A stretch of 64,000 bases of DNA from an uncultured Acidobacteriota bacterium (GTDB lineage: Bacteria; Acidobacteriota; Thermoanaerobaculia; Multivoradales; SZUA-115), in NCBI GenBank assembly GCA_963805975.1, contig CAWDVR010000004.1, positions 480,001 through 544,000 of the forward strand. The letters run 5' to 3'. The notes beneath the pieces were generated by a model that saw only the letters and a program-made list of their open reading frames with translations, had not been told where the DNA came from and searched no databases. Positions 7,948 to 41,848 of the stretch are shown here, in pieces. Within the stretch, counting starts at the first letter, position 1. Each line of letters begins with the position of its first letter. Position numbers and translations under genes: made by a program.

Positions 7948-8023
7948 TTCTTCCACGCTTTTCTCCTCTGGAGAAAGGCCCCTACCACCCCGTTCTCCCT
8001 CCCGCCCGGAACGGGGGCTCTGC

Positions 8024-9592
8024 GTGAATTCCAATATTGCCTGGGTCGTGGTGATCCTGCTCGTGGTCGCCAGCCTGCTGCTGGTCTTTGTCTGGCGGCG
8101 CGCACAGCAGCGGGCCAAGGAGATCCTCGCCGACGCCGACAGCCGACGTCTGAAGGCTCTCGAAGAGGCGAACCGCCAAGGCGAGGCCATCGTCCGCGAG
8201 GCGGAGCTGGCGGCCAAGGAGAAGCTCTTCCAGGCGCGCACCGAGTTCGAGAAGGCCTCGAGCAAGCGCCGCAGCGAGCTCGAGACCGTCGAGCGTCGCC
8301 TGCAGCAGAAGGAAGACCTGCTGGACAAGCGCACCGACCAGATCACCCGGCGCGAGCAGGATCTGACCGGCCAGGAGAAGAGCCTGGTCGGCCGGGAGCG
8401 GAGCGTCGCCGACAAGGAGGCCGAGCTCGATGCGCTGGTGGCCGAAGAGCGCTCCAAGGTGGAGCAGATCGCCGGCCTGACTGCCCAGCAGGCGCGCGAG
8501 GAGCTGGTGCGGCTGATGGAGACCGAGGCGCGGATGGAAGCCGCCCACATGGTGAAGCGGCTCGACGACGAGGCCCGGGAGCAGGCCACCAAGCAGGCCC
8601 AGCGCATCATCGGCATGGCCATCCAGCGGGTGGCGTCCGACTACGTCTCCGAGACCACGGTGTCGGTGGTGATGCTGCCCAACGACGAGATGAAGGGCCG
8701 CATCATCGGCCGCGAGGGCCGGAACATCCGCACCCTCGAGATGGCGACCGGCGTCGACCTGATCGTCGACGACACCCCCGAGGCGGTGATCCTCTCCGGC
8801 TTCGACCCCTTCCGCCGCGAGATCGCCCGCGTCTCGCTCGAGCGCCTGATCGCCGACGGCCGCATCCACCCGGCGCGGATCGAGGAGATCGTCGAGAAGG
8901 TGAAGGCGGAGTTCGACGACCGGGTGCGCACCGAGGGTGAGGCGGCGCTGCTCGAGCTCAACATCGGCAACGTCGACCCCGAGCTGGTGCGGCTCCTGGG
9001 GCGCCTGCGCTTCCGCACCTCCTACGGCCAGAACGCGCTTCATCATTCCAAGGAGGTCGCCTTCCTGGCCGGCACCATGGCGGCCGAGCTCAAGGCCAAG
9101 GTCCACGTGGCCAAGCGGGCGGGGCTGTTCCACGACATCGGCAAGGCGATCGACCGCGAGATGGACGGCACCCACCTCGAGCTGGGCATCGACCTGCTGC
9201 GCAAGCACGGCGAGACCGAAGAGGTCATCCATGCCATGGCCTGCCACCACGGCGACTACGACCCGCAGACCGTCGAGGCCGTGCTGGTGACCGCCGCCGA
9301 CGCGCTCTCGGCCGCTCGCCCCGGCGCCCGCCGCGAGGTGCTCGAGACCTACGTCAAGCGCCTGGAGAAGCTCGAGGAGATCGCCGGCGGCTTCAAGGGC
9401 GTGCAGAAGACCTTCGCCATCCAGGCCGGCCGCGAGGTGCGGATCATCGTCGACAGCGGCAAGCTGGGGGACGAGCAGGCGATCTGGCTGTCGAAGGACA
9501 TCGCCAAGAAGATCGAGAGCGAGCTCACCTACCCCGGCCAGATCAAGGTCACCGTGATCCGCGAGACTCGCGCCGTCGAGTTCGCCCGATGA
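8024..9592 (+). CDS. rny: Ribonuclease Y
   Basis: N-terminal TM helix, coiled coil, KH domain ([15 protein letters not shown]), HD domain (HDIGKA), [12 protein letters not shown]. Confidence 0.97.
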
Positions 9593-29004: not shown

Positions 29005-29036
29005 CTGACGCTTGGCTGACGCCGGGTCTGCATGAT
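29005..29036 (+). promoter_or_regulatory. SARP/OmpR-type promoter: CTGACGC-N4-CTGACGC-N8-CATGAT
   Basis: Two identical heptamers with 11-bp periodicity, ending 8 nt before a -10-like hexamer, in the AT-richer region upstream of the giant gene. Confidence 0.55.
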
Positions 29037-29130
29037 GCGACCCAACATCGCTGTCAGAGCACCTGATCGCGAGTCGCTCTCGACCCACGCAATGGGCTTC
29101 GGTACTGGCTTCGCACTGAGGAGGGTTTCG

Positions 29131-32100
29131 ATGAAAGTTCGTGGAATCTTGTTTGGTCTGCTCGCGCTGGCTTTCCTCACCGCCACCCTGCCGGCTGCCG
29201 CACAGCTCGGTCCGGGTCCCTTCGCCGCCTTCCCGACCTCGGACGAGACGGACGGCCGCTTCCTGGGGTTCGGTTGCCCGGGTCTCCAGACCTTCGAGTC
29301 GGGGGTCTCGATCACGCTGGCGGCACAGCCCTCCGAGACCGACTTCACCCTGAGCATCTTCGACGGCGACTCGAGCGGTTCGGATCCGTTCGGTCACTGG
29401 GACATCGGCGACCGCCAGCTCCTCTACAGCCTGTACTTCGACCCGTTCCGCCAGGGGAACACCAACCCCGCGGACCTGGTGGGCCAGTGGACCGGCAACG
29501 CTCCCAACCCGCCCACCAACCCGGTCCCGGACCCGAACAAGCAGTGGACGACCTCGGCCGCCACCATGCCCGACAACGACTGGTGGGGCGTGACCATCCA
29601 GACCTCGGCCCCTGCACAGGCGATGCCGGGCGCGAACTTCTTCTACCACCTGCGGATCGACGCGGACGGGACCTGCGCCCCGCTGGAGCTCCTGGAAGCG
29701 AACATCAAGGTGGCGGCCTCGGCGCCCCTCAACTTCGCGGCGCCCCGGTTCGCCTTCGTGGCGGCGCTTCGGCAGCTCGAGGACATCGGGGTGATCTATC
29801 CCGGCGCTCCGTTCCCGGACCTGCCGGGCGGCCGTGGCTACATCGACGAGCCCACGACCAACGACGGCACGTTCCAGTTCGCGCTCAACATCCCGCCGGG
29901 GGCCACGACGCTGAACCTGTATGACGGCGACTTCGATCACGGCACCGACCCGGTGGACAATTTCGGGATTCCCTCCGGCGTGCCTCTGAATCCTTGCATG
30001 GACCTGGACGATCCGGACACGCCGGCGGACTACGGCAACTTCCCTTCCGGTGTAGGGACGGCGGGGGCAGACCCCGAGGGCGCGGTGCCCTTCGGCCAGC
30101 CGGCCGACGACGTTTCCTTCGACATCTTCCGCCGCGGCGAGCCGGCCTCTGCGGACCGCCTCGGCTGCGTGCGTTACGAGATCACGGATCCCGACGGCAA
30201 CGTCTACGCGAACAACAACCCGTCGAGCAACGTCGAATGGGAGCAGTTCCGCATCGTCAGCCTGAACGATCCCGACGCGGGCGACCCCAGTCTGTACGAC
30301 CACCTGGCGCCGACCCCGTTCCTGACTCCCGGGACCTGGGACGTGCGCGTGGTCGGCCTCGACATGTCGAACCTGAACTTCTGGTTCGCCGAGTTTGGCG
30401 TCTGCTCGAGCCTCGAGAACCCGCAGTTCTTCATGCCGCTCGACTTCGAGAAGAACGGTTTCGGCAACACGGTCGCCTCGGGGGTGGTGGTGGCGGAGCA
30501 GTGGGCCAACCTGGGCATCCACTTCAGCACCAATGACCCGGTCAACCATCCGATCAAGACCTTCGACTCGGCGTTCCCCTTCGCCCTCGAGCTGGACCTC
30601 GGCACTCCCAACGTCGACTTCTTCGGTCTGGGGGTCGGCGCCGGTGGCGGCGCCGGCCAGCCGGGTGAGAACCGGGTGCCGCAGCGCAACATCCTGGTGA
30701 TCGCCGACAGCCCGGAGGCCGACGGCAACTACGACGGCGGCGGCGTGATCATCGTGACCTTCGACTCGCCGCGCCAGCTCTCCGCCGTGGAGCTGCTGGA
30801 CATCGAGGAAGCGGGCGGCACGGTGCAGGCGTTCGACTCGCCCGTGGGCGGCTCGCTGCTGGCCTCGGCGGCGATCCCCACCCGCGGCGACAACGGCTTC
30901 GTCTCCGTCCCCCTGGTCTCTCCAGGCGTGCGCCGCCTGGAGATCACCTTGGTGGGCGAGGGCGGCGTGGTCGCCATCCGGTCGGGCCAGGCGTTCACCC
31001 CGTCCTGCCCGCCGCCGGTCTTTGCGCTGGGCGACACGGTGTTCTACGACGACAACGGCAACGGCACGCAGAACCCCGGTGACGACGGCATCGCCGGCGT
31101 GGTGATGGAGCTCCTGGCCAACGGCAACCCGACCCCGATCGCGTCCGCGATCACCGGTGACACGGCCAATCCCAACTTCAGCAAGTGCCGGAGCCTGAAC
31201 ACCGGCCTCGACGAGCAGGGCCTGTACTGCTTCCTGGTGCCGTCTGGCGATTACACGGTGCGGGTGGCGGCCTCGAACTTCGCTTCCGGCCAGCCGCTCT
31301 TCGGCCTGGGCTCCACCACCGGCGGCGAGACCCAGACCAACACCGTCAGCAACGCCAACGTCATGACCTACGACTTCGGCTACCGCGGCACCGGCTCGAT
31401 CGGCGACCGGGTGTGGCGCGACAATGACGGCGACGGCGTGCAGGACGGCGGCGGCGAGACGGGCATCAACGGTGTGACCGTGCGTCTGCTCGACGCGGAC
31501 GACAACGTGATCGACACGCAGGTGACCGCCGGCGACGGCGGTTACCTGTTCAGCAACCTGGGCCCGGGCGACTACACGGTGGAGGTGATCCCGGCGAGCT
31601 TGCCGGCGGGCCTCGATCAGACCTACGACCTGGATGGCGTCGGCACCCCCAACAGCGCGGCGGTGAGCCTGGCGGCGGGCCAGAACCGCACAGACGTGGA
31701 CTTCGGCTACCGCGGCACGGCCTCGATCGGCGACCGGGTGTGGCTGGACCTGGACGGCGACGGCGTGCAGGACGGCGGCGGTGAGACCGGCATCAACGGT
31801 GTGACCGTTCGCCTGCGGGATGCGGGCAACAACGTGATCGGTACGCAGGTGACGTCCGGCGACGGCAACTACCTGTTCACCAACCTGGCCGCCGGCACCT
31901 ACACGGTGGAGGTGGACTCGACGACCCTGCCGGCGGGCTTGGCGCAGACCTACGACCTGGACGGTCTCGGCACTCCGCACCGCGCCACGGCGAGCCTGGC
32001 GGCGGGCCAGAACCGCATCGACGTCGACTTCGGCTACAAGCCGGCGACGCCGGTCTGCACCGCCGGCTACATGAAGGACACGTTCACGACGGCGAGCTTC

Positions 32101-34236
32101 TCGAACAACGAAGGCACCCTGGCGTGGAGCGCCGCGTGGATCGAGAACGACGTCGCCGGCGCCGGTCCGGGCAGCGGCAATGTGACGGTGGGAACTCCGG
32201 TATCCGGGTACCTGATCCTGCGCGACAGCCCGGACACCGGCACGCAGCCGAGCGCGGCGCGCGAGGCCAATCTCTCCGGCTTCGCCTCGGCGATGCTGTC
32301 CTTCGATTTCCACATCCGTGGGGTCGAGACCGACGACGCGGCGGTGGTGGAGGTTTCGAACAATGGAGGCGCTTCCTACACCGTTCTCGAGACCTTCACC
32401 GGCCTGACCGGGACGACCATCAGCTCGCGCAGCTACGACATCACGGCATACAAGGCGAGCAATACGCGGATCCGGTTCCGGATCAGCAACCTGTACGGCG
32501 GCGATGACGATTTCTTCAAGCTCGACCTGGTCCGTATCGACGCCACCTGCGTGCCGCCGCAGACCGGTTCGGTCGGTGACCGGGTTTGGAAGGACAGTGA
32601 CGGCGATGGCATCCAGGACGGCGGCGAGCCGGGGATCAACGGCGTCACCGTCCAGTTGCTGAATTCGGGAGGCACGGTCGTCGCGACGCAGGTGACCAGC
32701 GGCAACGGAAACTATCTGTTCAGCGGCCTCAACGCCGGGACCTATTCGGTGCGTGTCGTTTCGAGCACCGTGCCGGCTGGCTACTCGCAGACCTACGACC
32801 TCGACGGCACGGGCAGCGCCCACATCGCCAGCTTCTCGCTGGGCGCGGGACAGAATCGCACCGACGTCGACTTCGGCTATCGCCCGGCGCCAGTCTGCAC
32901 CGCCGGCTACCTGAAGGACACGTTCACGACGGCGGGCTTCTCGAACAACGAGGGCACGCTGAATTTCAACGGCTCGTGGATCGAATACGACGTGGCGGGA
33001 GCGGGTGCGAGTAGCGGCAACGTGACGGTGGGAACTCCGGTCGCCGGGTACATGATCCTGCGCGACAGCCCGGACACCGGGACGCAGCCGAGTGTGGCGC
33101 GCGAGGCCAATCTCTCCGGCTTCGCCTCGGCGACGTTGTCCTTCGACTTCCACATCCGTGGAGTCGAGGCCGACGACGCGGCGGTGGTGGAAGTTTCGAA
33201 CAACGGGGGAGCTTCCTACACCGTGCTCGAGACCTTCACCGGCTACACCGGCACCACGATCAGCTCGCGGAGCTACGACATCACGGCGTACAAGGCGACC
33301 AATACGCGAATCCGGTTCCGGATCAGCAACCTGTACGGCGGCGATGACGACTTCTTCAAGCTCGATGTGGTGCGCATCGACGCCGCTTGCGTGCCTCAGA
33401 CTGGATCGGTCGGCGACCGGGTGTGGAAGGACAGCGACGGCGACGGCGTCCAGGACAGCGGCGAGACGGGCCTCAACGGGGTTACCGTCGAGCTGCTGAA
33501 CTCGGGCGGCACGGTGATCGCCACCCAAGTGACGAGCGGCAACGGCAACTACCTGTTCAGCGGCCTCGCCGCCGGCACCTACAAGGTACGGGTCAAGTCG
33601 ACCACGGTGCCGTCGGGCTACACCCAGACCTACGACCTGGACGGCACCGGCACGGCGCACCTCGCGACGTTCACGCTGGCGGCGGGACAGAACCGCACCG
33701 ACGTGGACTTCGGCTACAAGCCAGCGCCGGCGTGCACGGCGGGTTACTTCAAGGACAACTTCGGCACCGCCAGCTTCTCGAACAACGACGGCACGCTGAG
33801 CTGGTCGGCGGCGTGGGTCGAGTCCGACAGCGCCGGCGCGGGAGTGAGCAGCGGCAACGTCACGGTGGGGACGCCGTACAGCGGCTATCTGATCCTGGAC
33901 GACAATCCGGACACTGGCACGCAGCCGAGCGCGGCGCGCCAAGCGAACCTCTCCGGCTTCGTCACCGCGACGCTCAAGTTCGACTTCCACACCACCGGCG
34001 GTACCGACGCGGACGACGCCGCGGTCATCGAGGTGTCGAACAATGGCGGCGCGTCCTACACCGTGCTGCAGACCATTACCGGACTGACGGGCACGAACGT
34101 CGGCTCGAAGACCTTCAACATCTCGGCCTACATCTCGAGCAACACGCGGATCCGGTTCCGGATCAGCGCCAACTATGGGGCCGCGGACGAGATGTTCAAG
34201 GTGGACACGGTGCGGATCGACACCACTTGTCCGTGA
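29131..34236 (+). CDS. Giant secreted/surface protein (1701 aa) with five SdrD B-like domains and three Cys-bracketed ~165-aa repeats
   Basis: SD GAGGAGG, signal peptide MKVRGILFGLLALAFL..AAA; GD(R/T)V(W/F).D.(D/N)G(D/N)G.Q...DFGY repeats; C-TAGY...ID..C domain three times. Confidence 0.88.
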   Translation: MKVRGILFGLLALAFLTATLPAAAQLGPGPFAAFPTSDETDGRFLGFGCPGLQTFESGVSITLAAQPSETDFTLSIFDGDSSGSDPFGHWDIGDRQLLYSLYFDPFRQGNTNPADLVGQWTGNAPNPPTNPVPDPNKQWTTSAATMPDNDWWGVTIQTSAPAQAMPGANFFYHLRIDADGTCAPLELLEANIKVAASAPLNFAAPRFAFVAALRQLEDIGVIYPGAPFPDLPGGRGYIDEPTTNDGTFQFALNIPPGATTLNLYDGDFDHGTDPVDNFGIPSGVPLNPCMDLDDPDTPADYGNFPSGVGTAGADPEGAVPFGQPADDVSFDIFRRGEPASADRLGCVRYEITDPDGNVYANNNPSSNVEWEQFRIVSLNDPDAGDPSLYDHLAPTPFLTPGTWDVRVVGLDMSNLNFWFAEFGVCSSLENPQFFMPLDFEKNGFGNTVASGVVVAEQWANLGIHFSTNDPVNHPIKTFDSAFPFALELDLGTPNVDFFGLGVGAGGGAGQPGENRVPQRNILVIADSPEADGNYDGGGVIIVTFDSPRQLSAVELLDIEEAGGTVQAFDSPVGGSLLASAAIPTRGDNGFVSVPLVSPGVRRLEITLVGEGGVVAIRSGQAFTPSCPPPVFALGDTVFYDDNGNGTQNPGDDGIAGVVMELLANGNPTPIASAITGDTANPNFSKCRSLNTGLDEQGLYCFLVPSGDYTVRVAASNFASGQPLFGLGSTTGGETQTNTVSNANVMTYDFGYRGTGSIGDRVWRDNDGDGVQDGGGETGINGVTVRLLDADDNVIDTQVTAGDGGYLFSNLGPGDYTVEVIPASLPAGLDQTYDLDGVGTPNSAAVSLAAGQNRTDVDFGYRGTASIGDRVWLDLDGDGVQDGGGETGINGVTVRLRDAGNNVIGTQVTSGDGNYLFTNLAAGTYTVEVDSTTLPAGLAQTYDLDGLGTPHRATASLAAGQNRIDVDFGYKPATPVCTAGYMKDTFTTASFSNNEGTLAWSAAWIENDVAGAGPGSGNVTVGTPVSGYLILRDSPDTGTQPSAAREANLSGFASAMLSFDFHIRGVETDDAAVVEVSNNGGASYTVLETFTGLTGTTISSRSYDITAYKASNTRIRFRISNLYGGDDDFFKLDLVRIDATCVPPQTGSVGDRVWKDSDGDGIQDGGEPGINGVTVQLLNSGGTVVATQVTSGNGNYLFSGLNAGTYSVRVVSSTVPAGYSQTYDLDGTGSAHIASFSLGAGQNRTDVDFGYRPAPVCTAGYLKDTFTTAGFSNNEGTLNFNGSWIEYDVAGAGASSGNVTVGTPVAGYMILRDSPDTGTQPSVAREANLSGFASATLSFDFHIRGVEADDAAVVEVSNNGGASYTVLETFTGYTGTTISSRSYDITAYKATNTRIRFRISNLYGGDDDFFKLDVVRIDAACVPQTGSVGDRVWKDSDGDGVQDSGETGLNGVTVELLNSGGTVIATQVTSGNGNYLFSGLAAGTYKVRVKSTTVPSGYTQTYDLDGTGTAHLATFTLAAGQNRTDVDFGYKPAPACTAGYFKDNFGTASFSNNDGTLSWSAAWVESDSAGAGVSSGNVTVGTPYSGYLILDDNPDTGTQPSAARQANLSGFVTATLKFDFHTTGGTDADDAAVIEVSNNGGASYTVLQTITGLTGTNVGSKTFNISAYISSNTRIRFRISANYGAADEMFKVDTVRIDTTCP
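32056..34233 (+). repeat. Intragenic tandem repeats of ~840 bp (Cys-bracketed domain plus SdrD B domain)
   Basis: Units start at TGC 32056, 32896 and 33733; units 1 and 2 are nearly identical at protein level. Confidence 0.9.
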
Positions 34237-34248
34237 TTGGGTGTCTGT

Positions 34249-34545
34249 ATGTCCAGCGTGAAGGAGCCGACGATCTTGGGACAGTTGACCATCCCGCCCT
34301 CTGTTCTCTTCCGAGACCTGGGCGGGGAGGCCGTGCTGCTGGAGCTCGAGACCGGCTGCTACTTCGGGCTCGACGAGATCGGGACCCGCATCTGGCGGCT
34401 GATCGAGAAGCACGGTGAGCTGCCGCGCGTGGAGCGCGAGCTGCTGGAGGCCTACGAGGTGTCGCCGGACCATCTGGCCGGCGACCTCTCCGCCTTCGTC
34501 CGCTCGCTGGTCTCGCGCGGCCTGCTGAGGGCCCATGAAGCGTAG
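34249..34545 (+). CDS. PqqD-family RiPP recognition element (lasso B1/E protein)
   Basis: GGEAVLLELETGCYFGLDEIGTRIW..I...LL.AYEV....LAGDL..FV.SL.SRGLL. Confidence 0.92.
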   Translation: MSSVKEPTILGQLTIPPSVLFRDLGGEAVLLELETGCYFGLDEIGTRIWRLIEKHGELPRVERELLEAYEVSPDHLAGDLSAFVRSLVSRGLLRAHEA

Positions 34546-34963
34546 AGCCCGCGCCTTCTTCTCGCTGGCGAGCGAAGAGCGAGACGTCCTCCTCGAAGCC
34601 TGGTGCCTCCTGCTGCTGGCGGATCTCGCCCTGCGCTGGCTGCCCTGGAGGCGGGTCGAGGGGCTGCTTGCACCCGCGCAGGGCTCCAGTCGTCTGACGC
34701 TGCTCTCGCCGGCACGGCTCGCCACGCTGGTCGAGATCGCGGCCCGGCACCATCTGGTTCCCATGACCTGCCTGCGGCGCGCGCTGGTGCTGCGCCGGCT
34801 GCTCTCGCGGACGGGCTCGAGCGGGGCCCTGAGACTCGGCGTCCGCCGCGAAGCGAACGAGCTCCTGGCCCATGCCTGGGTGGAAGTGGGCGAGCGGCCG
34901 CTGGGGGATGATCCTCAGGTAGCCCTCCGCTTTGCCCCCCTCCTGCCCGCTCACAGCGCGTGA
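34535..34963 (+). CDS. Lasso peptide B2 leader peptidase (transglutaminase-like Cys protease)
   Basis: TCLRRALVL...LRLGVRR...LAHAWVEVG (Cys-His-acid triad). Confidence 0.92.
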   Translation: MKRRARAFFSLASEERDVLLEAWCLLLLADLALRWLPWRRVEGLLAPAQGSSRLTLLSPARLATLVEIAARHHLVPMTCLRRALVLRRLLSRTGSSGALRLGVRREANELLAHAWVEVGERPLGDDPQVALRFAPLLPAHSA

Positions 34964-35042
34964 GACGAGTGCTAACAGTCGCCGGAGCGCTGGATCGAGC
35001 CTGCGACGCGCTCAGCTCGTTTTAGGAAGCAGTATTTTGTAA

Positions 35043-35077
35043 TGGTATGATACCGGCGGTCTGCGAGCCGGCGGTAT
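35043..35077 (+). promoter_or_regulatory. Extended -10 promoter (TGgTATGAT) with an overlapping inverted repeat, upstream of the precursor gene
   Basis: TG-n-TATGAT at 35043-35051; ATACCGGCGG-N8-CCGGCGGTAT at 35050-35077. Confidence 0.55.
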
Positions 35078-35152
35078 CCGTTCAGGCTGGCTACGAGTCG
35101 CTCTGTAGAGACTAGAGAGATGAAGCTCCAGCGGCCCGACCTGAGAGACACC

Positions 35153-35341
35153 ATGAGAGAACACGAGAAAGCGAATCAGGAAGGCGGTGGCACGCGGTCT
35201 TCCGTGCCCGCGGGCGAGCGGCCGCCGCGGCGCGCCTACAGCCCGCCCCAGCTCGTGGTCTATGGCACTCTTTCCGACCTGACCCAGGCCTTGGGCGTCC
35301 TTGGCCGCGACGGGTTGGCCGGCTCTCGTCCCCGTACCTGA
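35153..35341 (+). CDS. Lasso peptide precursor (A); predicted core ALGVLGRDGLAGSRPRT (35288-35338)
   Basis: Leader RRAYSPPQLVVYG (YxxPxL) with Thr at -2 (LTQ|A); Asp8 as ring acceptor; alternative start at 35120. Confidence 0.88.
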   Translation: MREHEKANQEGGGTRSSVPAGERPPRRAYSPPQLVVYGTLSDLTQALGVLGRDGLAGSRPRT

Positions 35342-35367
35342 ACCCCGTCCTGTCGCCACGAGCCCCG

Positions 35368-37149
35368 TTGCCAGGGTCCCTGCCACGGCAGCCTCCGCTG
35401 GCGGAGGGCGCCACGGCGGGCGGCTCCCACCCGCTGTCGCACGCGTGGCTGATCACCTGGGATCCGCACCATAATCGAGTCCGGGTAGGCTCCTCCGAGC
35501 CGTCGAGCCCCACTGCCGCGGATGCCACCTGCCTGTGGTGCGCAGGCTGGGTGGCGAATCGACCGGCGTTGAGCGCGAGGACCGGCCTCCCCCTCACGGC
35601 GACCGCTCGCGAGCTGGTGCCGGCGCTCTACGCCCGCGAGGGGCCCGAGGCGGCGCGGCAGATCGCCGGTGACCTGGCCTGGGTGCTGTGGGACCCTCGG
35701 CAGCGGCTTCTCTTCGCCTGCCGCGACCGGCTCGGAAGCCATCGCCTCCTCTACCGGGTGGTGGCCGACCAGATCCTGCTCTCTGGAAGCGTCGGGCCAC
35801 TCCTCTCCGACCCTCTCGTCCCTGGTCCGGGCTCGACGATCAATCTCTCGGCGCTCGTGGCGCACGTGCAGGGTGACGCGCTGCCGCCCGGGGAGACTTT
35901 CTTCAGCTCGATCCAGGCCGTCGAGCCGGCGACCTGCGTGACCTTCGGCGGCACGGCCGAGATCCGCCGGCGCTACTTCTGCCTGGCTGCCCAACCGCTG
36001 CTCGAGCTGCACAGCGACGCCGAGTATGCGGAGGCCTTCCGCGACCGGCTGCGGGAAGTGGTCGCGGACCATGCCGAGCCGGGACCCCTGGGCCTCACGC
36101 TGTCGAGCGGGCTCGACTCGACCTCGATCGCCGTCGCGCTCTCCGAGCTCGGCCGGGCCTCCGACGTGACCGCCATCACCTGGGTGACCCCGGGGCTGCC
36201 GGCGGCGGACGAGAGCGCGGGCGCCCGGGCGGTGGTGAGCCGTACCGGCCTCGGGCACCTGGAGATCCCGGCCGATCGACACTGGCCGCTGGCGACCGGC
36301 ATGGAGCTGGAGCCCCCCGCGGAGGGGCCGCCGCTGACGCTGTTCGGCGGGCTCTGGGACGTCACCTACGCGCTGGCTCGCGAGCGGCGGATCTCTTCCC
36401 TGTGGACTGGCCTGGGGGGGGACCATCTCTTCGGCGGGAACGTCTTCTCTTACCCGGATCTCCTGCTCACCGGCCGTTGGCTCGCGCTCGCGAGGCAGCT
36501 CCGGGACCATCTGCCGCGCTCGGAGTTCCGGCCCGCGGAGGTGCTGCGGTCGATGATCGTTTCCCCGATCCTCCGCTCCTACATGCCTCTGCCGCGCTTC
36601 CGCCGGGTCCCGACCGTGCCCTGGCTCACGGCCAAGGGGCTGGCCCTCTACCGCCCGCAGCGGCCCACCGCTCCGCGGCGGCTCCTGCCCGGCCGGCGCC
36701 AGCGGTTCGAGGCCCTCACCGAAGCGGCCCTGCCGCGGCTGGTGGAGGACCAGGCGGCCGCGGCGGCGCGCCATGGCGTGACTCTGCGGCATCCCCTGCT
36801 CGATCCGCGCCTGCTCGAGCTCGCGGCGAGCCTGCCCACCGACCAGAGCTTCCGCGCGGCTCGCCGCAAGGGGATCATGGTGCGCGCCATGCGCGGCCGG
36901 CTGCCCGACGAAATCCTCGACCGGCACGATAAGATTTATCCCACCGCGCTCGCCGAGCGCGGCCTCAAGGAGCGGGAGACGAAGAAGGTCTGGAGCCTGA
37001 TGGACAATCCGCGGCTCGGCGATCTGGGCCTGATCGAACCCGCCTCCTGGCGGCAGGCCTATCGGCTCTACCTCGATGGCCGCGAGGACTCCGACATGTT
37101 CTGGCACACCCTCACCGCGGAAGCCTGGCTGCGGCTGCACGGCGGCTGA
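35368..37149 (+). CDS. Lasso cyclase (asparagine synthetase B-like, C protein)
   Basis: RDRLG, LSSGLDSTSI PP-loop, TGLGGDHLFGG, HPLLDPRLLE; no N-terminal MCG glutaminase Cys; start uncertain. Confidence 0.88.
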   Translation: MPGSLPRQPPLAEGATAGGSHPLSHAWLITWDPHHNRVRVGSSEPSSPTAADATCLWCAGWVANRPALSARTGLPLTATARELVPALYAREGPEAARQIAGDLAWVLWDPRQRLLFACRDRLGSHRLLYRVVADQILLSGSVGPLLSDPLVPGPGSTINLSALVAHVQGDALPPGETFFSSIQAVEPATCVTFGGTAEIRRRYFCLAAQPLLELHSDAEYAEAFRDRLREVVADHAEPGPLGLTLSSGLDSTSIAVALSELGRASDVTAITWVTPGLPAADESAGARAVVSRTGLGHLEIPADRHWPLATGMELEPPAEGPPLTLFGGLWDVTYALARERRISSLWTGLGGDHLFGGNVFSYPDLLLTGRWLALARQLRDHLPRSEFRPAEVLRSMIVSPILRSYMPLPRFRRVPTVPWLTAKGLALYRPQRPTAPRRLLPGRRQRFEALTEAALPRLVEDQAAAAARHGVTLRHPLLDPRLLELAASLPTDQSFRAARRKGIMVRAMRGRLPDEILDRHDKIYPTALAERGLKERETKKVWSLMDNPRLGDLGLIEPASWRQAYRLYLDGREDSDMFWHTLTAEAWLRLHGG

Positions 37150-37151
37150 GG

Positions 37152-38360
37152 ATGAGCACACTGACGCGCGCCACTCTCCTCGCCAGGAAGCCTGACCTGG
37201 AGCTCCGCCTCGATGCCAGGAACCAGGTCGCGGTGATGGTCGGCGGCGAGGCCGTGCCCTGCGGCCCCTACGGACTGGCCGTTCTGGAGGCGTTCTCGCG
37301 GCCTGCCACTCTCGACGAGGCATTGCGCCGGGTGCAGGCCCGTGGCGCCCAGGACTGGATGGACCTCACCAGCGTCGTCGTGCGTCTCTACGAGGCCGGG
37401 GTGCTCCTCGACGGCGAGCGCGGCAAGCCGGCGCCAGAGAGGCGCTCCGGCTTTGCGAGCTGGTCGGTCCACGTCAAGATGCTCAACGACCGGGTGCGCA
37501 CGGCCAGCTACCTGAGGGCGATCGCGGAAACGGTGCGACCGGGCGACGTGGTGGTCGACATCGGCACGGGCACCGGGGTGCTGGCGGTGGCCGCGGCCCG
37601 TGCCGGGGCGCGGCAGGTGTTTGCCGTCGAGGCTTCCGGCATTGCCACGGTGGCCCGCGAGGTCTTCGCGAGGAGCGGCGTGGGCGATCGGATCACGCTG
37701 GTCGAAAGCTGGTCCACGCAAGCCGAGCTTCCGGAGCCGGCGGACGTGATCGTGAGCGAGATCATTGGCAACGATCCTTTCGGGGAACGGGTCCTGGAGG
37801 TGCTCGCTGATGCCCGGAGGCGGTTGGCCCGGCCCGGCGCGCGCTCGGTTCCCCGCCGCTTGCGGGTCTACGTCCTGCCGGTGACGGTCCCGGAAGAAGA
37901 GCTGGTGCGCCGCATGGGGAGCGAGGCGACCCTCGCCCGCTGGCGCTCCTGGTACGACCTCGACCTCTCCCCGCTCGCTCTGCTGGCAGAGCAGTCGGAA
38001 GAGCCGCTTTTCTTTATCCGCCCGCAGAAGGCGAGCCTCTGGCCGGCGCTCGCCGAGCCGGCGCTGGTGGCGAACGTGGACCTCGAAGCCGAGCCGCCCG
38101 GCGTGCTGGACACGACCGCGGAGGTCACGGTCACGGCTCCCGGCCTCCTGAGCGGCCTGCTGATGTACTTCGAGCTCGATCTCAGCCCCACGGTCACGTT
38201 CTCCACTCATCCCGCCCGGGTCGAGGAGGCCGGCTGCTGGCGGAGCCCCGTGTGGGTCCCTGCCCGGCGGCGGCGCTACGAGCCCGGCGAGCGTCTCTCC
38301 CTCCGCTTCGAGTATGGGCATGCCTCCCGCTGGACGCGGTTGACCCTTCTTCCCGCGTAG
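37152..38360 (+). CDS. PRMT-like (protein arginine N-methyltransferase fold) SAM methyltransferase with an N-terminal RRE/wHTH-like domain
   Basis: HVKMLNDRVRT..Y..AI, VVDIGTGTGVL, VFAVEAS, DVIVSEIIGNDPFGE (E-x8-E loop), C-terminal GLLMYFEL..FSTHP..CW. Confidence 0.8.
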   Translation: MSTLTRATLLARKPDLELRLDARNQVAVMVGGEAVPCGPYGLAVLEAFSRPATLDEALRRVQARGAQDWMDLTSVVVRLYEAGVLLDGERGKPAPERRSGFASWSVHVKMLNDRVRTASYLRAIAETVRPGDVVVDIGTGTGVLAVAAARAGARQVFAVEASGIATVAREVFARSGVGDRITLVESWSTQAELPEPADVIVSEIIGNDPFGERVLEVLADARRRLARPGARSVPRRLRVYVLPVTVPEEELVRRMGSEATLARWRSWYDLDLSPLALLAEQSEEPLFFIRPQKASLWPALAEPALVANVDLEAEPPGVLDTTAEVTVTAPGLLSGLLMYFELDLSPTVTFSTHPARVEEAGCWRSPVWVPARRRRYEPGERLSLRFEYGHASRWTRLTLLPA

Positions 38361-38369
38361 GGCCCCAGC

Positions 38370-39401
38370 TTGCAGCCTCCGAGCGCAACCGCCGGCCTCG
38401 GGCACGAGACCTACCGGGTCTTCGGGCAGACCCTCGCCACGAGCTTTCCGCTCGCGAACGTGCTCGCCTCCGGCCACGGCCCGGTCGATTTGGTCTTCTC
38501 CTGCACGGACCAACCCCCGAGCGAGGTGGACGACGCGGCGTTCGAGCCCTTCTATCAAAGCCCCGAGCGTACGGGCTCGGGAGAAGCGGTCTGCAGTCTG
38601 GCTCGCTTTCCCGGGGCTCGCCTCGTCGAGTGGGAGAGGCTGGGCTTCCCGCAGGTGGCCGACTTCTACTATCTCGGCCCGGCCCGGATTCACGCCCGAA
38701 GGCTCGCCGGCGGGAACGATGCCGAGATCGAGCAGTGCCTGCTCGGGCCGGTCCTCTCCTACTGGCTCGAGCAGAGGGGAATCCTCGCGTTACACGCCTC
38801 AGCGGTGGAGGTGGGGGGCGAGGCGATTGCCTTCCTCGCCGCCGGCGGCACCGGGAAGACGTCGCTGGCCGCGGCCTTCCTCGCAGAGGGGGACGCCCTG
38901 GTCACGGACGACGTGCTGGCCCTCCAGCCCGCTGCACGAGGATTTCTGGCGCTTCCCGGCTACCCGCAGCTCAAGCTCTGGCCGGATCTCGCCCGGCAGC
39001 TCTTCGGTGAGCGTTCGGCCCTGCCGCGCGTGCTTCCGGGGGTCGAGAAGCTGCGCGCCCCGGTGGGGGCCGGCTTCGGGCGGTTCTGTCACCAAACGCT
39101 GCCGCTGACCGCGCTCTACCTGCTCGAACGGCGACCCGAGGACGCGGGCCGCGACGGCCGCGTGGTTCCGGTCGCCTCACGAGACGCCCTGATCGAGCTC
39201 GTCCGGCACTCGTTCTCGCCCCGCCTGGCGGAGGCGACCCAACTCCAGGAGCGCCGCCTCACGCAGTTCGCCCGCCTGCTGCGGGAGGTTCCAGTCCGGC
39301 GTCTGCTGGTGCCCTCGGCTCTCGAGCTCCTGCCGCGGGTGGCCGAGGCGGTGCGGCGGGACCTCAGCCTGCCGCGAGGGAACCCTTCTCCTCGAGAATG
39401 A
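38370..39401 (+). CDS. HPr kinase-like P-loop kinase (lasso-peptide kinase type)
   Basis: LHASAV, AAGGTGKTSL (Walker A), LVTDD. Confidence 0.85.
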   Translation: MQPPSATAGLGHETYRVFGQTLATSFPLANVLASGHGPVDLVFSCTDQPPSEVDDAAFEPFYQSPERTGSGEAVCSLARFPGARLVEWERLGFPQVADFYYLGPARIHARRLAGGNDAEIEQCLLGPVLSYWLEQRGILALHASAVEVGGEAIAFLAAGGTGKTSLAAAFLAEGDALVTDDVLALQPAARGFLALPGYPQLKLWPDLARQLFGERSALPRVLPGVEKLRAPVGAGFGRFCHQTLPLTALYLLERRPEDAGRDGRVVPVASRDALIELVRHSFSPRLAEATQLQERRLTQFARLLREVPVRRLLVPSALELLPRVAEAVRRDLSLPRGNPSPRE

Positions 39402-41703
39402 GACGGCGCCTCTCCCCCCGCTCCTCCGCGCCTGCCGCCTCTCCCTGGCGGTCGAGCTCGTCGAGCGCCGCCAGGGCCTGGTTGTAGTAGTGCCGGGCGG
39501 TGGCGGCGGCGAGCGGCCGCGCCTTCGCCGCCGCCATCCGCGAATACTCGAAAGCGCGGCCCCACATCCGGGCCTGCCCGAAGTGATAGGCCAAGAGCTC
39601 GCAGGCCTCGGCCCGATCCGCCGGCAGCCGGGCCTCGATCGCCTCGGCGATCCGCCGGTGGAGGATCTGGGCCCGTTCGGGGGAGAGGCTGGCGGCGATC
39701 GCCCTGCGGATGGAGGGGTGGGCGAACTCGAAAGTGCCGTGCCGTGCTCCCTGGACCCAGAGCGCCACGTCGCGCTGGCGGCGGCTGTCCGCCCAGTAGC
39801 GCAGGAAATGCCGCACCAGCCAGCGCTGCAGCATCATCTCGACACAGGTCTCGACCACGCCGCCGTCCTCCTGCTCGGCAGCTTCCAGGAGCTCGGCTTC
39901 GAACCGCTGGCCGATCAGGGAGGCCAGGGTGAGCAGGCGCCGGGTGGAGGAGGGCAGCCGGCGGATACGCCGCAGGACCAGATCCTCGTGGCGCGCGGGC
40001 AGGTGCGACCCGAGCTGCCCCCCGAATTGCTTGGGCACGGCCGTCAGGCGCCAGCTCTTGCCCTCCGGCACCAGGGCTCCCTCGTCCCACAGCAGGTTGA
40101 TCCATTCGGTAAGGAGCAGCGGGGCGCCTTCGGTGGCAGCGAACAGGAACCGCGCCAGGGTGGCGCTGCCCTGCTTGCCGACCAGCGAGACGGCGATGCG
40201 GGCCACGCTCTCGGCCGAGAGGCGGTCGAGCGACAGGCGCCTGACGCGGCCTCGCGGCGCGCCGGCCGCGGCGAGGAGCTTCGCCAGGCCGCTCGACGCG
40301 GTCTCTTGCGGCCGGTAGGTCGCCACCACCCAGACCGGCAGGTCGGCGATCTCGGGGAGCAGCGCATGGAGCAGGTTGAAAGTGTCGTCGTCCATCCACT
40401 GCAGGTTGTCGAGAAAGAGGATCAGCGGGCGGGGTTTGCTCGCCGCGCCGGCGCCCGCTGTGACGTGATGGAAGAAGGCGCCGAGGGCGATGGCCAGGCG
40501 GCCGACCGGCAGCGGTGGCGGGTCGCCCGGCCTGGGGGCCAGCTCGGGCCGGAGCTCGCCGAGCTCCGGCACCAGCCGCGCAACGTCCGCCAGCGCGTCG
40601 CCCAACGGCAGACGGGTGATGCGCTCGGCGATCTCGACCTCGCTGGCGAGCGAGTTGCGGAGCGCCTCGATCAGCGGCTGGAAGGCGACCGGCGGCGCGA
40701 GATCGTAGCTGCGGCCGAGAAACACCGTCGCCCGCTCCCGGCTGGTGATCTCGTCGAGGACGGCGCGCACGAGGCGCGACTTGCCGATCCCCGCCTCGCC
40801 CTCCACCAGCGTCAGGCACCCCTGGCCGTCGCTCGCCGCGCGCCAGGTGTGGTGGAGGTGCTGGGACGCTTCCTCTCTTCCCACCAGCGGGATGAGGGGC
40901 CCGCGGGGAGCCGCCTTGTGCTCGCCACCGGCGAGCGCCGGCAGGCTCTCGTCGAGGATCTGCCGGTGGAGCTGGCGGGTCTCCTCCATCGGCTCGACGC
41001 CCAGCTCCCTGCCGAGCAGGCGCTCGAAGCTCTCGTAGTCCTCGAGCGCCCGGCTGCGGCGGCCGGTGTAGGCATAGAGCAGCATGAGCTGGCGGTGCAC
41101 CTCCTCCGACAGCGGGTCGATGCGCAGCAACTGCCGCGCGTACTGGATGCCGAACACGTGGCCGCCGGAACGCAGATGGTGCGCCACCAGGGCACGCAGG
41201 GCGGCGACGGCGGACTCGCGCAGGCGTTCCTGCTCGGCGAGCATCCATTCCTCGAACGGTGGGCTGTCGGAGAGAAAGAAGCCGGCCAGGAAGTCGCCGC
41301 GGTAGAGCTGCGCCGCCCGCGCCAGCTCCCGCGGGTCGGCGACGTCGCCGTCGCCCCAGCCGCGGTCGATCGCCTCCGAGAAGGCATGGAGATCGACCCA
41401 GCAGTGCTCGCCCGGTGCGAAGCGGATGCTGCCCTGCTCGGCGGAGATCAGTGGCGGGGCGCCCTCCGGCACCTGCAGCACCGCGCGCAGGTTGTAGAGG
41501 GCCTGGCGCAGGTTCTGGCGGGCCGCCGTTTCGCCGTGGTGAGGCCAGAACAGGCCCGCCAACTGGTCGCGGCTGAAGGCCCGCCCGGGGTGGGCGGCGA
41601 GGTAGGCGATGAGCGCGCGGGCGCGCTGCGACTCGAAGCGGACCACCCGGCGCGAACCGGAGATCTCGAGTTCCCCCAGCAGGCGGATGTCGAGGCGGGT
41701 CAT
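39364..41703 (-). CDS. SARP/BTAD transcriptional regulator with AAA ATPase and TPR-like domains
   Basis: LDIRLLG, RALIAYL..SRDQLAGLFWP..NLRQAL (wHTH); YRGDFL..W...E, DPLSEE.HRQLM (BTAD); LVGRE, EGEAGIGKSRL, LDNLQWMD; FAHP. Confidence 0.9.
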   Translation of the reverse strand: MTRLDIRLLGELEISGSRRVVRFESQRARALIAYLAAHPGRAFSRDQLAGLFWPHHGETAARQNLRQALYNLRAVLQVPEGAPPLISAEQGSIRFAPGEHCWVDLHAFSEAIDRGWGDGDVADPRELARAAQLYRGDFLAGFFLSDSPPFEEWMLAEQERLRESAVAALRALVAHHLRSGGHVFGIQYARQLLRIDPLSEEVHRQLMLLYAYTGRRSRALEDYESFERLLGRELGVEPMEETRQLHRQILDESLPALAGGEHKAAPRGPLIPLVGREEASQHLHHTWRAASDGQGCLTLVEGEAGIGKSRLVRAVLDEITSRERATVFLGRSYDLAPPVAFQPLIEALRNSLASEVEIAERITRLPLGDALADVARLVPELGELRPELAPRPGDPPPLPVGRLAIALGAFFHHVTAGAGAASKPRPLILFLDNLQWMDDDTFNLLHALLPEIADLPVWVVATYRPQETASSGLAKLLAAAGAPRGRVRRLSLDRLSAESVARIAVSLVGKQGSATLARFLFAATEGAPLLLTEWINLLWDEGALVPEGKSWRLTAVPKQFGGQLGSHLPARHEDLVLRRIRRLPSSTRRLLTLASLIGQRFEAELLEAAEQEDGGVVETCVEMMLQRWLVRHFLRYWADSRRQRDVALWVQGARHGTFEFAHPSIRRAIAASLSPERAQILHRRIAEAIEARLPADRAEACELLAYHFGQARMWGRAFEYSRMAAAKARPLAAATARHYYNQALAALDELDRQGEAAGAEERGERRRLILEEKGSLAAG

Positions 41704-41791
41704 CGAAAAGTCGTCGGGTCGCGAGAGATTCACAGTGTAGCGCGGAACGCTGTAGCAGCGTCGCTCCGGTCCTTCGGCACTGGCAGGGCCC

Positions 41792-41820
41792 TTGACAGGC
41801 CGCCGCCGTAGTCCTATCCT
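41792..41820 (+). promoter_or_regulatory. Sigma70 promoter of groESL
   Basis: TTGACA (41792-41797), 17 nt spacer, TATCCT (41815-41820). Confidence 0.85.
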
Positions 41821-41821
41821 G

Positions 41822-41848
41822 TTAGCACTCACCGACGCCGAGTGCTAA
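41822..41848 (+). promoter_or_regulatory. CIRCE element (HrcA operator)
   Basis: Perfect TTAGCACTC-N9-GAGTGCTAA. Confidence 0.97.

Follow-up and report, generated by a model that had tools for sequence, protein, structure and literature searches.

A PRMT-fold methyltransferase with an RRE-like domain in an acidobacterial lasso peptide cluster, a candidate for N-methylation of core arginine

The window analysed here, a 64,000-nucleotide stretch of an uncultured Acidobacteriota genome, carries a lasso peptide gene cluster in which an RRE-like domain is fused to a SAM-dependent methyltransferase that has the fold of protein arginine methyltransferases (PRMTs). The enzyme probably N-methylates an arginine of the lasso core, guided by its RRE-like domain and acting on the linear precursor before cleavage and ring closure; that arginine is its chemical target, whatever the carrier, is a claim that we hold with considerably greater confidence. 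We infer substrate, leader use and timing from the folds, motifs, gene context and co-variation described below.

The genes lie in the order B1-B2-A-C-methyltransferase-kinase (Table 1), B1, B2, A and C being all present and uninterrupted. The assignment to a RiPP (lasso) cluster made in the initial annotation was supported by the profile matches of B1, B2, precursor and cyclase: besides these genes, a YxxP leader motif, a Thr at position −2 and an acceptor residue within positions 7–9 of the core (Asp8) were found. The cyclase gene ends at 37149 and the methyltransferase ATG is at 37152, which confirmed the claimed gap of 2 nt; 9 nt separate the methyltransferase from the kinase ORF. The GC3 of the methyltransferase gene equals that of the neighbouring genes, and the source genome encodes no close paralogue of the enzyme. 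Against the NCBIfam model lasso_PqqD_Bac, B1 gave E 9e-14, below the cut-off of the model; its ATG is at 34249, and the reading frame is open already from a TTG at 34237. Neither a promoter nor a meaningful terminator was detected in the region 34000–40000. A reverse-strand ORF across the methyltransferase gene was discarded as a shadow, given the PRMT matches of the forward-strand ORF.

Table 1. Features of the lasso cluster and of its methyltransferase (positions in the window)
Feature	Position	Strand	Evidence or remark
B1, stand-alone RRE (PqqD family)	34249..34545	+	Pfam PqqD E 7.9e-16
B2 leader peptidase	34535..34963	+	Transglut_core3 E 3.8e-20; lasso_biosyn_B2 64 bits (cut-off 33)
Lasso precursor A, 62 aa	35153..35341	+	lasso_leader_L3 24 bits (cut-off 19); alternative ATG 35120
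Predicted 17-aa core, A46-T62	35288..35338	+	sequence; cleavage inferred via T(-2) rule
C, lasso cyclase (asparagine-synthase-like)	35368..37149	+	Asn_synthase E 2.9e-33
RRE-like domain + PRMT-fold SAM methyltransferase	37152..38360	+	402 aa
RRE/PqqD-like winged-helix domain, aa 1-88	37152..37415	+	HHalign to B1 profiles 92% and 91%
Double-E loop S202-E212 (E203, E212)	37755..37787	+	aligned with SEWMG...E loop of PRMT6/PRMT1
THW-loop equivalent G361-C362-W363	38232..38240	+	aligned with THW/DHW of PRMTs
HPr-kinase-like peptide kinase	38370..39401	+	HprK_rel_A E 7e-6; Hpr_kinase_C E 0.009; LHA, GKT, DD motifs

The core genes and the leader motif are common to this locus and to paeninodin-type clusters (B1, B2, C and an HPr-kinase homologue, PadeK or ThcoK). 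The present locus differs from them by the additional RRE-PRMT gene, by a core ending in Thr instead of Ser, and by having neither an ABC exporter nor a nucleotidyltransferase among its annotated genes. The lasso tailoring kinases characterised in the literature act on a C-terminal Ser (PMC9266682), and the C-terminal Thr might thus indicate a cluster without a lasso product, as might the cyclase, which matched lass_lactam_cya with E 1.2e-42, under the curated cut-off, and has a predicted TTG start without the usual N-terminus. An inactive enzyme or a product-less cluster, and hence no methylated peptide, is nevertheless very improbable in view of the uninterrupted set of lasso genes and of the SAM-binding and catalytic motifs, all of which are intact and conserved.

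Upstream of the cluster, a gene at 29032–34236 (+) codes for a 1734-aa protein with SdrD-B and reelin-like repeats and ends 12 nt 5′ of the B1 ATG; this giant surface protein may belong to one operon with the lasso genes. At 39364–41832 (−) a BTAD and AAA_16 (SARP/AfsR-like) regulator gene extends into the last part of the kinase gene, and a BTAD gene likewise directly follows the methyltransferase gene in the related loci L006 and L007.

Every motif quoted in the initial annotation was present in the translation: the HxxMLxDxxRT-like helix HVKMLNDRVRT (residues 107–117), motif I VVDIGTGTG, the E-x8-E loop SEIIGNDPFGE and the C-terminal FSTHP...GCW; a post-I VEAS (E160) was found as well. Searching the PDB by sequence yielded 76 matches at E ≤ 0.001, and the 60 listed were all PRMTs or PRMT-like proteins, PRMT6 being the best (E 2e-23). 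The profile built from 119 members matched PRMT10, PRMT7, PRMT8 and PRMT1 with E values from 1e-42 to 5e-46 over residues 101–399, a span that takes in the barrel, the W..YG.D arm and the THW loop. Foldseek comparison of an AlphaFold model (pLDDT 93.6, 119-row alignment) returned PRMT7 (E 3.7e-23, TM 0.71 on target), with PRMT7, PRMT6 and PRMT3 all at E of about 1e-22 over 310–370 columns, and both the class I Rossmann domain and the C-terminal β-barrel were matched. The claimed PRMT fold is therefore borne out by sequence and by predicted structure. A PrmA/L11 annotation was rejected, as that match covers the Rossmann part only and lies far below the cut-off.

Among the 119 homologues, E203 is conserved in 116 and both E212 and the SAM-binding post-I acidic residue E160 in all. 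In PRMTs the two glutamates of the double-E loop place the arginine guanidinium group (PMC12153873). The Trp of the THW loop is present in 114 of the 119, the His being replaced by Cys in the window's protein; in 33 lasso-linked relatives this position reads SW (15), HW (14), CW (2) or otherwise (2). By sequence, W264, W267 and Y268 align with the WWENVYGFD dimerisation arm of PRMT1 and PRMT8. The type I signature, i.e., the loop motif SExMGxxLxxExM (PMC12153873) together with the THW His, is absent: the loop SEIIGNDPFGERV ends in ERV (Val for Met) and the THW loop reads GCW. Since both the THW His and the ExM Met are replaced, mono- or dimethylation, and its symmetry, cannot be predicted. In all, the protein shares with PRMT6, PRMT1/8, CARM1, PRMT7 and PRMT9 the Rossmann domain and β-barrel, the HxxMLxD helix, motif I, the post-I Glu, the E-x8-E loop, the W..YG.D arm and the THW-loop Trp. 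It differs from these eukaryotic enzymes in being bacterial, in carrying the RRE-like domain where type I enzymes have the upstream portion of their N-terminal helix, and in the two substitutions mentioned; structural identity is 19–27%.

The N-terminal domain has an RRE-like fold by sequence comparison and predicted structure. The RRE/wHTH pattern claimed for the first ~85 residues was found in the AlphaFold secondary structure as three strands (17–20, 26–30, 33–38) followed by three helices (41–47, 54–61, 66–81). A profile of residues 1–90 aligned with two lasso B1 profiles over 84–94 columns (HHalign 92% and 91%), against at most 1.8% for column-shuffled profiles (20 made, 19 scored); these shuffles are a better control than a response-regulator HHalign control, which was small and mixed. 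Searching 5484 ORFs with the HMM of the domain placed B1 proteins next after the family itself (best E 0.0013), the best non-family match being an FAD oxidoreductase (E 0.0007). In VIA-align, the RREs of BmdC, MccB, MibB, TigE, NisB, CteB, MadB and PbtF were among the top 17 with low Z scores of 3.7–4.9, interleaved with winged helices of non-RiPP proteins; taken over all RREs high in the list, Z ranged from 3.5 to 4.9, the best value of the search. In the ESM Atlas, MftB RRE clusters scored 0.76–0.77, a lead below the 0.9 mark. No RRE or PqqD model of Pfam or NCBIfam matched the domain, and the 25 families listed for the 119 homologues included none. The comparison with PRMT1, PRMT7 and PqqD proposed in the initial annotation thus succeeded for the PRMT part; for PqqD it succeeded by HHalign and failed by Foldseek, where a model of the domain folded without an alignment (pLDDT 77) gave nothing at E ≤ 0.001 (best E 0.37, PqqD in rank 3).

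No other sequence in the whole genome matches the precursor profile; the leader of the precursor carries YSPPQL...G...LTQ, corresponding to YxxP-L...G...T(−2). The predicted core contains three Arg residues, at positions 7, 14 and 16 as initially annotated, and no His or Lys. Arg7 lies within the predicted Ala1–Asp8 ring (GRD), and Arg14 and Arg16 form an RxR in the tail. According to the mechanism proposed, the linear precursor would dock by its YxxP leader on the RRE-like domain, and an Arg side chain would be gripped beside SAM by E203 and E212, the likeliest sites being Arg14 or Arg16 of the flexible tail or Arg7 of the ring. Methyl transfer would precede B2 cleavage and ring closure, as presumed by analogy with other lasso tailoring enzymes: StspM and tailoring kinases such as PadeK modify the linear precursor (PMC9266682).

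If the peptide is the substrate, methylation is slightly favoured to depend on the leader. Two points speak against a leader-guided role of the N-terminal domain: the cluster already holds its own B1, and the domain is present in many relatives without lasso genes nearby. RRE-like domains are described in the RRE-Finder preprint as vestigial in some cases. Complex prediction for residues 1–92 with the 43-aa precursor end gave a score of 0.01, the partner fold being uncertain, and speaks neither for nor against leader binding.

The closest characterised full-length homologue is TsaG of the thiostreptamide S4 cluster, for which gene deletion shows bis-N-methylation of His12 after macrocyclisation (PMC8153245). 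Thioamitide clusters make up two of the relatives' loci, L047 and L060, which encode a precursor whose core ends in His12-Cys13 together with a flavoprotein, a PhyH dioxygenase and a phosphotransferase; their methyltransferases, taken from the genome loci and not from the published TsaG sequence, were assigned as TsaG orthologues by synteny and precursor. They are 33–34% identical to the window's protein from end to end, and the N-terminal domains match with an HHalign probability of 99%. The TsaG/TvaG-type enzymes and the window's enzyme have in common this domain, Pfam PF06325 and the position as a tailoring gene in a RiPP cluster. The loop, in contrast, reads TDIVGNEALDM in the former and SEIIGNDPFGE in the latter, and the TsaG/TvaG-type substrate is a His of an AviMeCys peptide, whereas the window holds a lasso cluster with a His-less core. 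D..M replaces E..E in all five TsaG orthologues (three more were found among 401 genomes of the genus), which form one branch apart from the clade of the window's enzyme, so that the loss of the double E in the TsaG clade is one evolutionary event. The cores of both orthologue loci in which a precursor was seen contain His and no Arg. Neither the loop, the clade, the thioamitide cluster nor the His core of a TsaG-type His methyltransferase was found for the window's enzyme.

Two consequences follow. The combination of RRE-like domain and PRMT fold is already known in RiPP biosynthesis, acting on His, and the fusion is not new; and since TsaG with this architecture methylates His, a PRMT-type fold alone is not decisive for an Arg target. 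That the lasso peptide is methylated elsewhere than on Arg, e.g., on another core nucleophile or a terminus, is accordingly suggested by TsaG, by the Cys in place of the THW His, and by a second PRMT-fold clade of lasso clusters that has clearly lost the Arg pocket. We regard it as improbable, because the window's core offers neither His nor Lys and its enzyme keeps the Glu pair, which is missing from both TsaG and the second clade through loss. That second clade (L004:6321-7469, L009:6790-7929, L021, L048, L055, L092, L168, L212, L221, L222 and L241) has an SDLRG loop without the double E, carries at its C-terminus an RRE-like tail that matches B1 with an HHalign probability of 94%, and sometimes stands beside the double-E clade in a lasso cluster; where it stands alone, Arg occurs in 2 of 5 cores.

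Indirect support for Arg as the target came from the cores that accompany the intact loop. Both Glu residues are intact in 135 of the 140 sequences bearing the N-terminal domain. From 34 such loci with lasso genes a precursor was obtained in 22, none being detected in the other 12; two further loci with a precursor and without scored lasso genes brought the number to 24, and for 4 of these the choice relied on a looser pattern or on a previous profile. An Arg-bearing core was found in 23 of these 24 (44 Arg among 519 residues, 8.5%), where about 14–17 would be expected by chance. As controls we took, from 60 and 26 fetched B2 loci, those that yielded a precursor and showed no PRMT within the stretch retrieved. 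In the class of the source genome 14 of 23 cores bore Arg (26 of 468 residues, 5.6%), and in the phylum of locus L003, 9 of 15 (9 of 419 residues, 2.1%). Comparison of 23/24 with the pooled 23/38 gave a nominal Fisher p of 0.002 for groups of unlike taxonomy with non-independent kin. The position of Arg varies between cores and is not conserved.

The opposite association was seen in the near-identical loci L058 and L127, which count as one event: the enzyme has an E..Q loop, is nested in the clade of the window's enzyme and accompanies an Arg-less, His-bearing lasso core. This enzyme (5355–6611 in L058) shows E212Q, M110L and FAW, its core contains one His, and on these sequences a second switch to His methylation is possible. 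Arg cores thus accompany the intact loop and loss of the second Glu accompanies Arg-less cores, which indirectly supports Arg as the target; to this extent the leader-dependent Arg N-methylation put forward in the initial annotation gained ground, in its Arg part. The lasso cluster of locus L084 (2200–4721) contains two tandem enzyme copies, of which one is intact and the other has D for the first Glu and lacks the THW Trp.

The search for the family gave 606 matches in many phyla among 7995 candidates scored. Lasso genes lie within 8 kb in 25 of the best 80 genome loci, 25 have an actinobacterial context, 2 are thioamitide clusters and 28 are other or truncated. A B2 gene was found in 22 of 50 genomes of non-lasso loci (52 attempted), a share near that in the class of the source genome (112 of 301, a tally that takes in one unpublished genome), so that action of the orphan copies in trans is not indicated. 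From this B2 frequency and the 25 lasso loci it follows that the family is not a dedicated lasso enzyme throughout.

An Arg methyltransferase with another target, either another protein or free arginine, would agree with this spread. Its winged helix would dock a protein or be vestigial, and its gene would merely travel with lasso clusters. About two thirds of the best 80 loci have no lasso genes nearby, and some lie beside housekeeping genes, L134 beside a carbamoyltransferase and an amino-acid kinase gene. The intact enzyme of L011, encoded on the opposite strand in a lasso cluster, accompanies three cores without Arg, His or Lys; an actinobacterial branch adjoins an Arg-rich small protein; PRMT-like domains occur inside NRPS proteins too (of three partial matches to longer fusions, two lay within NRPS proteins); and bacteria have arginine guanidino methyltransferases such as SznE (PMC11705231, PMC12637814). 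Set against this are the enrichment of Arg in the cores of linked clusters, the position of the gene wedged between cyclase and kinase, and the precedent of TsaG, which with the same N-terminal domain modifies the peptide of its own cluster (PMC8153245). Another target is on balance unlikely, and methylation of the core arginine of the lasso precursor is the reading that we prefer.

Several of these contexts were recorded in further detail. In L011 (3756–4860, −; 7983–9209, +) the three precursors stand in tandem and have a WxAPxV leader, and the enzyme gene is inserted between B2 and the kinase. In L033, L061 and 49 related actinobacterial loci, an ORF of ~90 aa starting MG-x-x-RRR-x-RRRT occurs in 41 of the 51; DUF6325 and sulfatase genes are nearby in these E/E loci and no RiPP genes were seen. 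The pairing, which also speaks for Arg as the target, is one event, and the Arg-rich product is, from its sequence, a candidate bacterial methyl-Arg protein. In L134 (6752–12185) and L147 the surrounding genes include those for adenine deaminase and M20 peptidase, and this metabolic setting is suggestive of a small molecule as substrate. L224–L229 form a divergent RRE-like and PRMT clade with an HEVLG or HELFG loop and both Glu residues kept; they adjoin class I lanthipeptide LanC/LanB genes and Cys-rich precursors, a neighbourhood that favours a roaming RiPP tailoring role and also shows the breadth of the family.

Other SAM-dependent tailoring genes of lasso clusters, like the one in the window, are LasF/StspM (C-terminal ester) and TceM/LihM (aspartimide), which differ in being O-methyltransferases of other families (PMC9266682, PMC13352647). 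The modifications described in these two lasso reviews include aspartimide and citrulline formation, C-terminal methylation and phosphorylation; methyl-Arg is not among them, and the sole Arg change described there is citrulline formed by PAD. The novelty argument of the initial annotation, drawn from lasso methylations, used an incomplete list, as the full-length homologue TsaG methylates His in thioamitides. SznE/StzE of streptozotocin biosynthesis N-omega-methylates arginine in bacteria as proposed here, yielding methyl-arginine as a small molecule and not on a ribosomal peptide (PMC11705231), a likeness of description and not of sequence. No report of methyl-Arg on a lasso peptide, or of Arg methylation of any RiPP by a PRMT-fold enzyme, was found in an open-access library with only a minority of subscription papers; the large tables of RRE-Finder may list this fusion. 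Such an enzyme is not described in the portions consulted of the RiPP reviews PMC10373908 and PMC10125368 or of the 2025 RRE survey PMC12710340.

What is new in the present cluster is a TsaG-like architecture with the PRMT arginine pocket kept, in a paeninodin-type lasso cluster. Side-chain methylation of arginine is a hallmark eukaryotic mark. The existence of a characterised His-methylating relative allows a clean test of whether the double-E loop controls specificity for Arg or His, and the small size of the enzyme, the 62-aa precursor and the cluster permits this to be tested directly. A leader-guided Arg methylase, if real, would be a useful tool in peptide engineering. Tentatively, and with the odds somewhat against so broad a proposal, the family could be a true bacterial peptidyl-arginine methyltransferase family, modular through its RRE, marking lasso peptides and probably lanthipeptides, with a loop retuned at least twice (to His in TsaG, and to an Arg-less core in the L058 lineage). 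If so, the loop sequence would predict the methylated residue, and a leader tag could aim the enzyme at any peptide.
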